From Mizuhopecten yessoensis (lineage: Eukaryota): a stretch of 64,000 nucleotides of DNA. The notes below the pieces were generated by a model that saw nothing but the letters and a program-made list of their open reading frames with translations, ran no database searches and was not told the DNA's origin. The translations under genes and the position numbers were made by a program. Shown one piece after another: positions 15,926 through 61,007 of this stretch (positions within the stretch are counted from its first letter, which is position 1; each line of letters begins with the position of its first letter). The stretch covers positions 235,933 to 299,932 of the forward strand of contig NW_018408883.1 in assembly GCF_002113885.1 (NCBI RefSeq), in the 5' to 3' direction.

Positions 15926-17154
15926 CGCCACAAAATGGTGGTGGCAACGCTGACGTCATTTTAAAGTGCCAAAACATTGAAGTGTCACAAATTGGATGAC
16001 ACATCTGTCCCAATTTTCTGATAATAGGCTGACAGGAGGAGCATTGGAAGACTACAATATAAGGCGCCGTGGACACTCGTCTCCTACAGATACACACAAT
16101 ATAAGGCGCCGTAGACACTCGTCTCCTACGGTTACACAGTAGCGGCAGCCTAACTGGTGTTATCATTATTTGGCATATGTTAGGCATTACGTAAAATAGT
16201 TTAAAAAGGTAAATAATCAGGGTTTTTTGGGTTTTTTTTTAATATTTTATGTTCACACAACACCCCAAATCATACAAAAATTGTTTCCAGACACTCAAGG
16301 GCCATTTCATTATTCCTTTTACTGGCCATTTCTGTTGCAAACACTGATTGCATTTTACATCTATAAATCATCTCCCAGATTTGTTCAGCATGAATGAGCC
16401 GAACGTCTTATATCCGATTTAAGATTTAATGGGTTTTTTCTGATATCACTCTTACACGTAAAAATCACCAACAACAAGTCGTAATTTATAGATTTAGATA
16501 GCAAAAATGGTGGGACAGTTAGCGTAAACGAGATACCCCAGGTACATTAAACGCTTGGCATGGAGAGTCAATCGCGATTACAGGAATTCTGTTCATCTGG
16601 ATATCTACATATGTAAATAGCTTTTTGCTTCTTTGAAAGATTATAAATAGTACAGGCACTTATGATGTGATAGTTCCATGTAAACATGGAGTCGCCGTTC
16701 GAGATAATCCCGGACCATACTAATTACAGTCGGTATTGCAATCGGACGGGATTCATCACGAACGCATCCATTAGGCTTCGGGACGTCAGCGGTTCACTCA
16801 ACTTTACGTACAACACAATACGGAGCTGATAAATGTACAGCATCATATGAGATTTACCAAACGAGTCTAGACGGTTTGTTTAGTGAGACATTCAAGGTTC
16901 TTTCTATAACTCAGAATTCATTTGAATGTCATGTCATTGTCACCCCAACGTCAACTTTGTAATGACCCGATTCGGAAATAGATTACGCCACAATTAGTTT
17001 CCTTAATGTGACGTCGTGATAGGAAAAAATCTCTGACGTCATATTTTAAAGGTCAAATACTAGAATTCCCTGCATAACAGAAAGAGGGAATAGACTTATA
17101 AAGGCTATGCCTGTTGTCCAATTCATTTGTTTTTGAAACAATAAAATATGTAAG

Positions 17155-17310
17155 TAATGAATGTTTAAGTAAATGGTGTTATGGTCCAATAACACACATT
17201 GCTATTGATGACAGACTTAATAAAGCGCCCGGTAGGGCTTTATGTAAGTTTGTGAGCAATACAATTGTGTGTTATAGGACCATAACAATATTTGCTGAAA
17301 CATTCATTAT
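17155..17310. repeat. Long imperfect palindrome (~72-bp arms, GC-rich loop)
   Basis: TAATGAATGTTT..TGTTATGGTCC..ATAACACACA..ATAAAGC arm mirrored around GCCCGGTAGG. Confidence 0.85.
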
Positions 17311-17399
17311 ATATATTAACATTATAATAGAGTAGTTACTCATTATTTAGTTATTTCGAACAGTTCTTTGAACAGCATATTAACTGTTGACAACAATGA

Positions 17400-20556: not shown

Positions 20557-21836
20557 GAAATTTATTACCTATGATAAACCGTTTATTTTAAAATGTGCTC
20601 CCGAGAAACATACCTGTCCGCTGTCAAAAACATCTTTAAATATTGATTGCATGCACGACGGAATGAACAGGTTCTTGTTTGTATAATTTATAAATAGGAT
20701 CCCGAAATAATATCCCTATTGGCCCTTAAGACACTATTCGTGTGTACAAAGCTAAATTCCCAAGTACATTGGTATCTATGTGATAGAAAAAACACACCGA
20801 TTGAGGACATCGATGAGAAAGCCGGAAAAGAGCCATTTCAGGCAAATTGGAAAATTGGCTATTTTGTCCGCTGAAAACATCTAATGAGATTTGGAAGGAA
20901 AAGAAAGATAACTTCTGCCATTTTGTAGGATATTTTTTATTGTATAGAGTAGATGCAGTATGCGTCCATTCTAACGCTTGAGTCAGAAGTATGATAATAA
21001 ATGATGTACAATTCTCCATTGGATTCCAGCAATGCCGCGATACGTTAACGTTTATCGTCAGTAAGCGTATCACTAAAAACTGATAGAAAAATTGACCAGA
21101 ACTTTGTACGATAATATTCTCCATGGATCTTTTTCGTATTTACTTTCTTCTTTGCCAATACACATGCATATCCCAAGAGTAACCCTTTCCTTAGAAACAG
21201 TCGGGAGTCGCGCCCGCTGCCTGTACCGGCAGTTGTATAAAGGGCAGACACATCGTGTCAATAAATGTACATATCAAAACACGCATGCGTATTGAGTGGA
21301 AAGAATCTCTCAAACTTTATTACCTAATATGGTAAATAAATAGAGAATATTAAATGGTTTCTCGTTAAATACCATAGTTTCACAAGTATATAGGACGAGA
21401 AATATATTAGGCGAAGTAAGATCATATTCACGTTGAGGTCAGTTTACAGCAGGTCAATATTCACTTATGACGTCATTATAATTGTAACGTCACAACAGCG
21501 AATTAAATATCGCTAAATCCATTCGCATGGAGAAAGACCGATATGCATTTTTACACTATTTGTTGCTTTGGAGGCAGATATCATCCTTCATACATCTCTC
21601 TCTCTCTTTCTCTCTCTCTTACTTTCGATATAGAAATAAAAGCATTGAACAATGAAAAGAAAAGTGTATATATGTATATTAATGAAGTCTGCCATCTTGT
21701 CATATTGTAAATATATGCTTGTAATTCGCTGGGAAATATGTTAAATAATAGTTTAATAACTTGTGCCCAAATCATTTGCAAAACAATAGAACATGTTTAG
21801 TCTAATTTAAGGACTGTTATGTCAGTGATTATGAGA

Positions 21837-21908
21837 TTATATGGACCTGAGAAAGTGATATTGGCCTCAACTTCTCCCTGATAATATCACTTTCTCAGGT
21901 CCGTATAA
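21837..21908. repeat. Hairpin of the same design as those at 59590 and 60372
   Basis: 26-bp arms TTATA(T/C)GGACCTGAGAAAGTGATATT around a degenerate GGCCTCAACTTCTCCCTG loop. Confidence 0.75.
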
Positions 21909-23279
21909 CCACATATTTACCACATCAGAAATTGTTAAATACATACTTGGTTTTACATTCCACTTGGTAGCATTCATATGGAAGTTATTCTAGGGGACTT
22001 TGGACACAAGCAAACAGGAGCATACATTATTTTCAATATTAAAAAAAATGTAAACTGATGTAAAATAAGATCAATAACTAGGGAGTTGGGTTACCTGTTC
22101 GATTTTGTCCACCTGGTCACATTAGATAATTGTTCTAAAAATAGCGACCAGTTACGTTGTGTGGTATGTTTTCTGTATACATATGTACGAGCGATGCTAG
22201 GCGTTTATACGTGCTAAAACACACAAGGAAACAGTTTGTGTTGAAGTTCATTACTTGTCACACAAACGATAATCTATAAATGTATTGTTGTTTATAATCT
22301 GAGGAAGTTGAAGACATTTAACTGGAGCAGACGTTTTTGATCGGACTTCTGTAAAAAAGTACAGCAAGACGCCATTTTACTTTCCATCAACATTTGATTA
22401 TCGTGCAAATTATATGGTTTGGTGCAACATTCGACAAATGTACAGCATGAATAAATGAATAAATATACAATGTTTACAGGGTAACCAAGTACATCGTCTC
22501 GAAGATTCGGATGTATTTAAACTTAAAATAGAATGGCACTTAATACCTAAATAATACTAGATGTTTTAGTGCTGATACATCAATACAGTATTTACAGTAA
22601 CTCTGATGCGGATATTCACCTACAATTTAACAAGAGATACATAAAGGGCGAAAACGAGTAGTGTGTGGAAGAGAAACAAAATGACAAGAGTTTCCAAGTT
22701 GGATATAAATCACTTTGTTTTCTCCAGGAGGAAGAAAAGAGACACATCTTTGAATAAAGCCGTGGTAAACACCAGCTCAGTTATTTACGTTCTCGACCCT
22801 GCAGGTTAAGAGGGATGACAGATATTTGTATACTCGAAAAGACAAAAAACGACTTCATCTACGCAATATAAAAATCTCTAAAACGACAGTAGTTTACGTT
22901 CCTTCCCTTCAAAATTATATATGTTGTCATGAGTTAACGAAACGGGTAGTATTACAATTTAGCGGAAAGGAATCATTGGCTCCTTTCTCAACATCTATGT
23001 CCTTTAGCTGTGCGCTTTCCGTGGTTATCGATGCTATATATCCTTACATTAACAGAAAGAAACCGTAGTGTCGTATACAGCTAGTCAAGGATCTTACACA
23101 TGCCTGTTTGTTTAAATACACAAACAAATATTTTTGTTATCCTGGTTTTAAATTGCACAAATGGAATCCATTGTTTCATTCGTGCAAGCAATCAATATTT
23201 CAATTAATTATTAACCGTTGGAAAGTTTATGATTCGGGTAGACATTTCCGTGTACATTACATAAAGGGATATTATGAAT

Positions 23280-58096: not shown

Positions 58097-58506
58097 GTTT
58101 GTTAAATAACACAAGTTGTCATATATTCCCGTGTTATTGTCGTTTGATTAAGAAGTTCATACATGTAACAAGGACGTATGATATTTCAAAACTTAAATGA
58201 CATCAGGATTACATTTGAGTTATTTTTACTTACTGTGTGCAGGGTTTTAAATTTATGAACCTTAAACAACGGGGGAAAAAATAAAAAAAAGGATTTATAT
58301 TTAAAACAATTTTGATGCTAGCTATATATTGATGCATCATTGATCTCTGAAAACGTAGTGGAAGTGTGTGTGTGTAGTTGAAGAAATGGGATGCATTTAT
58401 GTTCTATTTAATGATTTAATTTATGTATCTATTTTTGATGTCTATTTATTTATTTTGTAAACCTGTAAGCTGATATAGTTGTAATATAATGTAATTTTGA
58501 TTGAAG

Positions 58507-58642
58507 ATGGTGCTGTTATCGGATGATCTTCAGAAGAAGGGAGTTTTACACACCAGAACAGATGTGGACCGATTTTGGAACGATTTCGGGAAATCTGGAA
58601 TGGAAACCGATATTTTCGCTACAAAAGATCCCCTGAAAGAAG
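58507..58642 (+). CDS. Same gene, exon 5 (MVLLSDDLQKKGVLHTRTDVDRFWNDFG...DPLKE)
   Basis: Acceptor TTTTGATTGAAG, donor AAG|GTAGGG, 136 nt, phase 0-1. Confidence 0.85.
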
Positions 58643-59266
58643 GTAGGGCATTCTGAACATATAAAATATGTTTTGTCTAATGACGTTATATGTGCTGTCT
58701 AATGACGTTATATGAATTGTCTAACGTCGTAATATGTATTGTCCAATGGCGTTATATGTATTGTCCAATGGCGTTATATATATTGTCTAATGACGTTTTA
58801 TGTGCTGTCTAATGACGCAATATGTATTGTCTAATGTCGTAATATGTATTGTTCAATGGCGTTATATGTATTGTCTAATGACGTTATATGAATTGTCTAA
58901 CGTCGTAATATGTATTGTCCAATGGCGTTATATATATTGTCTAATGACGTAATATGTACGATCTAATGATATAAATTGTACTGTCTAATGACGTTATATA
59001 TATTGTCTAATGACGTAATATGTCCTATCTAATAACGTATTATGTCCTGTCTAATGAAGTAATATGTCCTGTCTAATGACCTTATATGTATTGTCTAATG
59101 ACGTTATATGTACTGTTTAATGACGTCATATGTACTGTCTAATGACGTAACATGTTCTGTCTAATGACGTAATATGTTCTATCTAATGATGTAATATGTA
59201 CGGTCTAATGACGTAATATGAACTGTCCAATGGCGTGATATGTACGGTCTAATGACGTAATATATA

Positions 59267-59732
59267 TTGTTACACCTCAAGTGAATTTCTAGCTATTTGA
59301 TTGGTTGGGAGAAAATTAAACAAAAATCTCTGTCACCTTCCCAAAATACATTGGTTTAAAATTTGATATTGCCATGAGACAGTGAAAAATATCACATGCG
59401 CGAAAAATGTGCGTTCACCGCTCCGTTTCCCCACCGTGATGGTCACAAGAACGTTTGACGGCAACAGCCAATATTATCAAGCGCCGGTGCGATAGCGATT
59501 GTAAACAGCAGACTATCAACAAACAGGATGTCATTATCGAGGTTTGCTGCCGTTTCTGAGCTACAAAGACTTTTGGTGTAAAAAAATAGATATGACATTC
59601 ATTAGCAGGTGACAGTGATTATTGTCAACCCTCAAACACCCATTGTCACCCTCTGCTTCGCCTCGGGTGACAATGGTTTTCTCGGGTTGACAATATTCAT
59701 TGTCATCTGCTAATGAATGTCATATTTATATA
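59267..59732 (+). mobile_element. Crypton-like non-autonomous element, copy 1
   Basis: No TIRs; 6-bp direct repeat TATATA/TATATA; 136-bp subterminal palindrome at 59590-59725; mini-ORF MSLSRFAAVSELQRLLV* at 59528. The family label is inference. Confidence 0.7.
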
Positions 59733-60041
59733 CTGTCCAAAGACGTAATATGTACGGGTCTAATGAAGTAATATGTACTGTCCAATGACGTAATATGTAC
59801 GGTCTAATGACGTAATATGTTCTGTCTAATGACGTAATATGTACGGTCTAATGACGTAATATGAACTGTCCAATGGCGTGATATGTACGGTCTAATGACG
59901 TAATATATACTATCCAAAGACGTAATATGTACGGTCTAATGACGTAATATGTACTGTCCAATGACGTAATATGTACGGTCTATTGTCGTGATATTTACTG
60001 TCTAATTACGTTATATGTACCATCTAATGACGTAATATGTA

Positions 60042-60514
60042 TTGTTACACCTCAAGTGAATTTCTAGCTATTTGATTGGTTGGGAGAAAATTAAACAAAA
60101 ATCTCTGTCACCCTCCGAAAATACATTGGTGTTAAGGGGCGCGGGTGATATTGCCATGAGACAGTGAAAAATATCACATGCGCGAAAAATGTGCGTTCAC
60201 CGCTCCGTTTCCCCACCGTGATGGTCGAAAGAACGTTTGACGGCAACAGCCAATTTTATCAAACGCCGGTGCGATAGCGATTGTAAACAGCAGACTATCA
60301 ACAGACAAGATGTCATTATCGAGGTTTGCTGCCGTTTCTGAGCTACAAAGACTTTTGGTGTAACAAAAAAGATATGACATTCATTAGCAGGTGATAGTGA
60401 ATATTGTCAACCGGAGAAAACCATTGACACCGGAGGCGAAGCGGGGGGTGACAATGGGTGTTTGGGGGTTGTCAATATTCACTGTCACCTGCTAATGAAT
60501 GTCATATTTATATA
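60042..60514 (+). mobile_element. Crypton-like non-autonomous element, copy 2
   Basis: Same termini as copy 1; flanking hexamers TATGTA/TATATA; palindrome at 60372-60507 with inverted centre. Confidence 0.7.
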
Positions 60515-61007
60515 CTGTCTAACGACGTAATTAGTATTGTCTAATGCCGTCATTAGAGGTTATTTCTCAAATAGTATTCCTACTCCCATATTATTTCACA
60601 AACAGGTGTAAAATAAAGTGCATATTAAGCATTCGATTAGTAATGGTCCATTTGAATTTACGTGACGTGTTACCAATGAAAAACATAGTGTTCATCAGAA
60701 CGGGTTTTGTAGGTATGTTGAAGATAAAAGCGAGATACAGAACGTTTAACATATGTAAACAATGTTAATCCACAAACTGATTCTGTTTGTAATTAAGTCA
60801 AACTACAAACAAGGAAAGTTAATGTTGTGTGTTTCTGTTGTGCTTATACCACGTTTTATCTAAACAATTCATGTTTTGTTTCATCATTATAAGCCGCATT
60901 TGAGAATCCCTTTAACGTAATAACCTGATTTGAAAATTCAGCTGGCTTAGTAATGTTCAAAACTTTAATGTATAAATGTTATTGCAAGCATTTGTTTTCT
61001 CTCTCAG

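Follow-up and report, generated by a model that had tools for sequence, protein, structure and literature searches.

A 22-bp minisatellite at positions 58665-60558 of the window, the whole stretch of 64,000 nucleotides analysed here, is interrupted twice by a non-coding element (array delimited with TRF). The two interruptions probably represent separately inserted, non-autonomous deletion derivatives of a CryptonA-type transposon, and their family may well move as a folded single-stranded circle through one strand exchange; taken as a whole, this account has in our judgement about an even chance of being correct. The satellite itself matters little, and the value of the case lies in what the copies reveal about the ends and the insertion of CryptonA. 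Animal CryptonA transposons are the source of the ZMYM, QRICH1 and KCTD genes. Their ends, their target and their junction rule are now defined from 91-114 junctions, and the plan of the ends is repeated in seven families. In its available text, the 2011 paper by Kojima and Jurka on Cryptons left the ends of the animal elements undefined (PMC3212892).

The interrupted array and its two inserts

The left block of the minisatellite occupies positions 58665..59266 (all features here are given on the + strand), and each of its units holds one near-target site in one register (TRF, unit parse, target matrix). Its last six bases, TATATA at 59261..59266, are the host spacer of site 1 and equal the end of the element by chance. 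Copy 1 follows at 59267..59732, with a length of 466 bp, the common hairpin orientation and a divergence of 3.2% from the family majority. It contains a splint, the term used here for the left end of the element repeated in inverted form at the foot of the hairpin (59569..59584), the long terminal hairpin (59590..59725) and the fixed terminal hexamer (59727..59732). The middle block (59733..60041), covered by contigs of X1, X5 and X7, includes a duplicate, 8 units or 176 bp long, of the array around site 1 (59800..59975), in which an empty target site lies at 59899..59914 as arm, hexamer (59904-59909) and arm. The block closes with the host spacer of site 2, TATGTA (60036..60041), in the usual letters of the array.

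Copy 2 (60042..60514, 473 bp) differs from the family majority by 3.4%. Its splint (60351..60366) is separated from that of copy 1 by one substitution, its long hairpin spans 60372..60507, and its fixed hexamer TATATA stands at 60509..60514, before the last two, decayed array units (60515..60558, unit parse). The predicted fold of the whole of copy 2 has a z of -8.1. Its hairpin core is flipped: the inner hairpin agrees with that of copy 1 at 89.7% as aligned and at 91.4% against the reverse strand. Both inserts share one register of the array, after ...GACGTAA-TATRTA and before CTGTC, as an earlier note on this DNA had described. The same note had seen the flanks of copy 1 rejoined without the element around the hexamer 59904-59909, and unequal hexamers beside copy 2 (TATGTA and TATATA); both observations hold, the rejoined flanks with 2 mismatches in 132 bp and 5 in 176 bp.

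Elsewhere in the window, two more long hairpins occur at 17148-17316 and 21825-21920, with arms of 72 nt and 38 nt, and may be the ends of related non-autonomous elements. The segment 9000-12000 is GC-rich (47-55%) and T-skewed, and Pfam gave no match for seven frames in it. The sole Rfam match in 58500-60700, to mir-43_2 (E 0.18), was set aside as a weak chance match.

The family and its junctions

The family was collected from the genome assembly (G000). The host genome is rich in AT, and its Atlas neighbours are mostly Mollusca, in line with a mollusc. A DNA search with the element returned 418 candidates, of which 40 were scored, and the 23-base left end occurs exactly 254 times (reversed control, 0), which puts the family at a minimum of 254 copies. 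The sample comprised the window, 29 top-scoring loci and 80 regions from the first 100 of the 254 left-end places; of the 116 left ends that it yielded, 95 could be paired with a right end, and both flanks were clean for 91. Most often a copy measures 473 bp (39 of 93), and 65 near-full copies lie a median of 2.6% away from the majority sequence. Flipped hairpin cores were seen in 4 of the 64 copies that could be scored (3 of 34 in the pattern-picked set), and the core is deleted or altered in 29 more of the 93. At L061:1473-1956, a hairpin arm switches into the reverse of the copy's own first 120 bases, and this copy has two left ends, each with a host arm and six bases alongside.

The two sides of the junctions behave differently. 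On the right, the hexamer is TATATA in 84 of 91 junctions, the remainder having 1-2 substitutions; on the left, 114 ends carry 89 distinct words, and TATATA appears in two of them. The same hexamer stands on both sides in 3 of 91 junction pairs. A count of 82 to 0 between junction types is biased, since the right-end finder took in the hexamer with up to two mismatches, so that only the left-end count is a fair test. In the array sites whose neighbouring units could be compared, removal of the element restores the unit spacing in 11 of 11, and the left hexamer equals that of the neighbouring unit in 8 of 11. It is off by 1-3 bases in the other three (L015, L030 and L120), each of which ends its hexamer in T instead of the A of the units, and for this reason the crossover may sometimes be other than a single clean point. 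At each length of 3-6 bp, exact flank repeats were counted in no more than 3 of 91 junctions; none of the 91 has one of 7-12 bp, and no long flank duplications are present at the family's non-array sites.

From the hexamer counts, the unit spacing and the flank-repeat counts, it follows that the element enters without target duplication and without a shared core. The 6-bp direct repeat proposed in the earlier note is thus not borne out: on the right the hexamer is the fixed end of the element, on the left it is host DNA under no constraint, and copy 1 has TATATA on either side by chance. The same note had preferred a recombinase crossover to a target-site duplication. The tyrosine-recombinase type and the lack of duplication stand, whereas crossover within a shared core fails on the three identical pairs in 91.

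Two insertions and an empty site

The empty site is not an assembly artefact, as contigs of X5 and X7 span it (59834-59948) with 0 differences (four public runs); in run X10 the middle array is hardly covered, if at all. Among the joints listed for four runs at the window, none skips the whole element. A second 8-unit duplication lies at the left end of the same array and contains no element at all. An ordinary duplication of 8 array units includes the empty site, and because the second duplication lacks an element, the precise excision entertained in the earlier note is superfluous, the array duplicating in such blocks anyway. The site could have arisen by duplication before insertion or by unequal crossover between filled and empty alleles, and less likely by excision; excision after duplication is possible inasmuch as the divergence of the duplicate (2.8%) is not above the age of copy 1 (3.2%).

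Copies 1 and 2 differ at 26 sites, with about 14 private changes apiece, and in closeness to each other they come 31st and 27th among 64 neighbours. Together with the differing flanking units and hairpin orientations, these figures make separate insertions likelier than a single duplication, as previously proposed, although a common local source is possible. That the copies might instead derive from one insertion, through duplication in place or a short hop nearby, with later divergence, we regard as unlikely. Such an origin would account for one variant exclusive to the two copies and one found in 4 of 65 copies, sharing that only 29 of 1035 comparable pairs equal with two or more such variants, and for their proximity in a FastTree tree of the whole element (weak support, 0.74). 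Set against it are the 26 differences, the flanking units that differ on both sides, the opposite hairpin cores and the failure of the copies to group on the hairpin-free part; copy 2 also shares two rare variants with L114 and two with L079. A local hop would agree with the separate insertion favoured here; a duplication would not.

Target site and array preference

A matrix built from 89 sites outside the window describes the target as a loose palindrome, RWYAW-N6^HTRTY, of 8.4 bits, with the insertion point at the right border of the 6-bp spacer. At the crossover itself (positions -1 and +1) the motif is asymmetric, T being as frequent as A at -1. The filled sites of the window score 8.9 and 8.4 and the empty site 7.1, against a training median of 8.7. 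When this target was compared with the 22-bp unit, as the earlier note had suggested, a single register on one strand gave clearly the best match, and this accounts for the common register and direction of the two copies. Per kb, good target sites number 10.7 in the array, 2.3 in the flanks and 1.5 elsewhere in the window, a density in the array 5-7 times the background.

This likeness to the target does not translate into a preference. Array junctions make up 13 of 91, or 11 of 89 without the window, and 78 of 91 lie outside arrays; 11 of 89 against a background cover of 10-15% is no enrichment (p 0.28-0.80). The units of the arrays that hold junctions all differ, except for the two junctions of the window. 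None of the remaining 89 junctions falls in this 22-bp satellite, and the look-alike arrays in the genome (L033-L060), of weak likeness (65-76%), have no element copy inside. The earlier proposal of a satellite that mimics the target and serves as a landing pad therefore keeps its first half and loses the second.

Four close pairs were present among the first 100 listed left ends. As double insertions, L063 was rejected as a duplicate across an assembly gap, and L061 and L062 as rearranged copies, and all three were set aside. The other, L064:1496-2559, is a double insertion in a 43-bp minisatellite, in opposite orientations at the same palindromic site and 394 bp apart. The window and L064 give two double-insertion arrays, where uniform placement predicts about 0.05 close pairs per 100 copies. 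In view of this second case, target-rich arrays can collect copies, perhaps helped by local hopping.

The model of the earlier note as a whole, with crossover at a shared 6-bp core, a dedicated landing pad and maybe precise excision, thus appears quite unlikely. It draws on the fit of the unit in one register, the raised site density, the two double-insertion arrays and a duplicate young enough for later excision; it conflicts with the rarity of identical cores, by which the shared core was already refuted, with the lack of any other junction in this satellite and of enrichment in arrays, and with the element-free 8-unit duplication in the same array. The satellite story is mostly ordinary: a loose target was met twice in a target-rich, block-duplicating array.

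Parent element and recombinase

Matched lists of left ends and right ends pinpointed a 2.3-kb parent element, L171 (contig C1928 of the genome). It consists of the window element's first 306 and last ~165 bases, at 85-90% identity (shared segments, element bases 1-306 and 307-468), around an interior of 1.85 kb. Judged by this alignment, the inserts in the window are gene-less copies, and the family is an internal deletion of the 2.3-kb element. Other deletion derivatives of an L171-type parent, about 620-700 bp long, are found at L196-L207 and keep ~420-490 bases of the left part. A candidate autonomous form, L172, with a left-to-right-end span of 6.4 kb, was rejected as a copy interrupted by a LINE; this LINE, at L172:2408-6223, has an open endonuclease/reverse-transcriptase frame of 1272 aa.

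The interior of L171 holds recombinase remnants in broken frames, and recombinase matches and an intron-like stretch span its 1.85 kb. Pfam gave no recombinase, reverse transcriptase or DDE transposase match for its three plus-strand frames of at least 100 aa, and a sub-threshold match to Tuberin was rejected. The recombinase signal comes from the sister copies L192 and L193 and from tblastn. These partial sisters have open frames that match Phage_int_SAM_5/QRICH1 (L193) and Phage_integrase/DUF3504 (L192), with E-values of 4.6e-05 for Phage_integrase, 5e-04 for DUF3504 and 7e-04 for QRICH1, all below the curated cut-offs. Compared by tblastn with DUF3504 proteins that exceed the cut-off, L193 and L192 gave E-values of 2e-11 and 2e-17. 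Aligned to intact proteins, L193 has the catalytic R, and L192 has H-x-x-R, H and Y. None of 31 candidates yielded an intact recombinase for this family, L171 being broken and L192 and L193 partial.

Because the ends of the parent are shared, the sisters match DUF3504 and the catalytic residues are in register, we assign the window element, on sequence grounds, to the non-autonomous CryptonA-type transposons, presumably mobilized by a DUF3504/phage-integrase tyrosine recombinase. A HUH enzyme of the Helitron/Helentron type as the mover is highly improbable. Its proponents could cite the insertion without duplication, the hairpin near the end and the asymmetric inverted repeats, which resemble those of type-2 Helitrons as described in the available part of PMC8969392. 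Against this, the both-ended long form has remnants of a tyrosine recombinase and of nothing else recognised, and the target is an 8-bit two-armed palindrome and not a T or AT step.

The genome contains 383 DUF3504 candidates, of which 150 were scored. They include several families with near-identical copies and open frames of 344-645 aa, and the set represents a large, recent CryptonA expansion. The young DUF3504 families have no sequence in common with the ends of the window element, and they are for this reason parallels and not a demonstrated partner.

Hairpin-and-splint ends across families

The end of each copy follows one plan: a hairpin of ~136 bp with the inverted copy of the left end at its foot, then one T and the fixed hexamer. 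Copy comparison fixed the ends of six more recombinase families, seven with the parent; L232-235 and L236-237 (DUF3504), whose ends were not fixed, were excluded from the end test, and a hairpin stands close to the aligned edge in L236 and L237. All seven families (7/7) have a terminal hairpin of 110-165 bp at one end. When the script searched over 2.1-2.7 kb, the best match to the reversed far end lay within 25 bp of the hairpin foot in six of the seven. The reference copy of the seventh carries a substitution, and the far ends of its other two copies match at the hairpin foot. Five aligned proteins are 26-31% identical to the parent fragment, and two of the families share 63% DNA identity; being kin, the seven are not fully independent. 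In predicted folds, the joined left end is paired with the splint; relative to the host flank, this adds a modest ~3-6 kcal/mol.

One family is very young, with 98-99.9% identity between copies and an open frame of 506 aa, and is polymorphic between individuals. At L179:2518-2581, an exact 64-base joint links a right end to a left end, the last 24 and first 40 bases of this same family, with nothing between them and inside a rearranged hairpin. The joint fits a circle, or it could reflect a head-to-tail landing before another copy's left end. Among the 116 left ends of the window family no head-to-tail joint was found, and no circle joint is listed in contigs from four runs at the window and four runs at the young family, which is weak evidence because contigs drop rare forms.

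A further copy of the young 506-aa DUF3504 family, at ~3226-5373 of L173 (contig C143), has a direct duplication of 49-51 bp alongside; its intact 506-aa recombinase frame is located at L173:3376-4893. An empty allele with a single copy of the duplicated flank is present in contigs of X5 and X11, so that this insertion is polymorphic, and the long flank duplication may have been made by the insertion. One of 11 copies of the young family has such a duplication.

A proposed mechanism

The combination of hairpin and splint with one-sided junctions and the L179 joint points to a folded single-stranded circle. In the proposed route, one strand would fold, and the splint would bring both ends together into a recombinase site of arm, bulged spacer and arm. 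The recombinase would then close the folded strand into a circle, the circle and the target would exchange one strand at the border of the spacer, and replication would resolve the junction. The swapped strand would here be the minus strand, a choice that rests on the usual cut geometry of tyrosine recombinases. We regard this integron-like single-strand route, with its folded circle and single strand exchange, as evenly poised between right and wrong. Its extension to animal CryptonA in general, by which a splint-folded strand would form a single-stranded circle and insert by one strand into loose palindromes with neither homology nor duplication, we place slightly short of even.

Several exchange schemes can be weighed against the junctions. 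Tn916-type elements make a two-strand swap of unmatched cores. Such a swap is disfavoured because it predicts the element hexamer at about half of the plain-side junctions, where 2 of 114 were seen, and because host hexamers should over time enter the element end, which they do not. A single exchange at the spacer border explains both hexamer patterns. The junction pattern fits one strand exchange, and ordered duplex exchange with biased repair fits it too.

The main competitor is a double-stranded circle, in which ordered strand exchange with biased repair or replication would produce the one-sided junctions, and hairpin and splint would serve replication, protein binding or circle copying instead of forming the recombination site. 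We judge it possible but on the doubtful side. At the junctions of bacterial SE elements, one side has donor bases and the other retains those of the target (PMC9345347, in the part available), and these one-sided junctions, for which the same part reports no hairpin, speak against the single-strand route. A duplex circle is also assumed in the published Crypton model (PMC13565253, available text), and the two-armed palindromic target with its 6-bp spacer resembles duplex sites. What it leaves unexplained is why the far end recurs in inverted form at the foot of the hairpin in 7/7 families, and why the terminal hexamer never gains host bases (84/91 unchanged, a count subject to the bias of the finder). 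The single-strand route is directly testable, because the young family has an open 506-aa frame and is polymorphic; the substrates would be shorter than 200 bases.

Comparison with known systems

In the Crypton literature (PMC3212892, PMC9977147, PMC13465315 and PMC13565253, as far as their available text goes), the elements lie between short direct repeats that match the target. For animal Cryptons, the available portion of PMC3212892 found no terminal repeats, and two rows of its supplement give the termini as 'n.d.'. A 2026 review (PMC13565253) describes Crypton transposition, in the text available, as without experimental demonstration and assumes a double-stranded circle in its model. In the titles and abstracts searched, neither hairpin-plus-splint ends nor a single-strand Crypton model was found; Repbase entries may show hairpins.

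The closest relatives are CryptonA and its non-autonomous derivatives (PMC3212892; CryptonA-1N1_OL; salmon Crypton-N1_SSa and the Eulor5/6 repeats, PMC5753468). To judge from the available parts of these sources, the window family shares with them a DUF3504/QRICH1-type tyrosine recombinase as the only gene, an autonomous length of ~2.1-2.7 kb, abundant both-ended deletion derivatives and insertion without target duplication. It is unlike the published CryptonA in that the ends are resolved here as hairpin, splint, fixed hexamer and palindromic target, which Repbase may already show.

CryptonF (CryptonF-1_cRei, PMC9977147), CryptonS (TATGG, PMC13565253) and the Goodwin model have the tyrosine recombinase in common with the present family. 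As described in the available text, CryptonF and CryptonS also resemble it in a fixed short motif at one end, sequence-preferring insertion and a gain in copy number. Their terminal motif matches the target as a 4-6-bp direct repeat, whereas here the hexamer matches the spacer in 2/114. The lack of such 4-6-bp repeats does not exclude CryptonA, because PMC3212892, in its available part, found none either. The Goodwin model involves no target-site duplication, and the window family has none. CryptonV, which targets microsatellites (PMC8869645, available text), likewise comprises Cryptons inside tandem repeats; the window family differs in not being repeat-specific, with 78 of 91 junctions outside arrays.

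DIRS elements also combine a tyrosine recombinase with an internal region complementary to both the first part of the left end and the last part of the right end (PMC6681497, in the part available). They are marked by reverse transcriptase/RNase H and long inverted terminal repeats; the parent and sister families have no reverse transcriptase or gag and no long inverted terminal repeats, and their recombinase belongs to a different clade. The marks of Helitrons and Helentrons, a HUH Rep-helicase partner and insertion at an AT or T step, do not describe this family.

Among prokaryotic systems, integrons and CTX phage perform one strand exchange that is resolved by replication and needs little core homology. 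According to the available text of PMC9345347, integron cassettes (attC x attI) and CTX phage at dif rely, like the route proposed here, on a tyrosine recombinase acting on a folded single strand. The strand-biased circularizing integrative (SE) elements of Vibrio, covered in the same text, are alike in their tyrosine recombinases, in keeping the 6 bp of the target on one side and 6 bp of the donor on the other, and they form strand-biased circles. Unlike the window family, their donated 6 bp vary and come from the donor flank, they carry four core genes, and the authors of that text detected no inverted-repeat structure (PMC9345347). Integrons differ from the present family, which is a eukaryotic transposon with its own enzyme and dispersed, loose targets, whose folded site would comprise both element ends on an internal splint, and whose use of a single strand is putative. 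If the single-strand route is true, the family would provide an equivalent of integron chemistry in eukaryotes and a means of scarless insertion.
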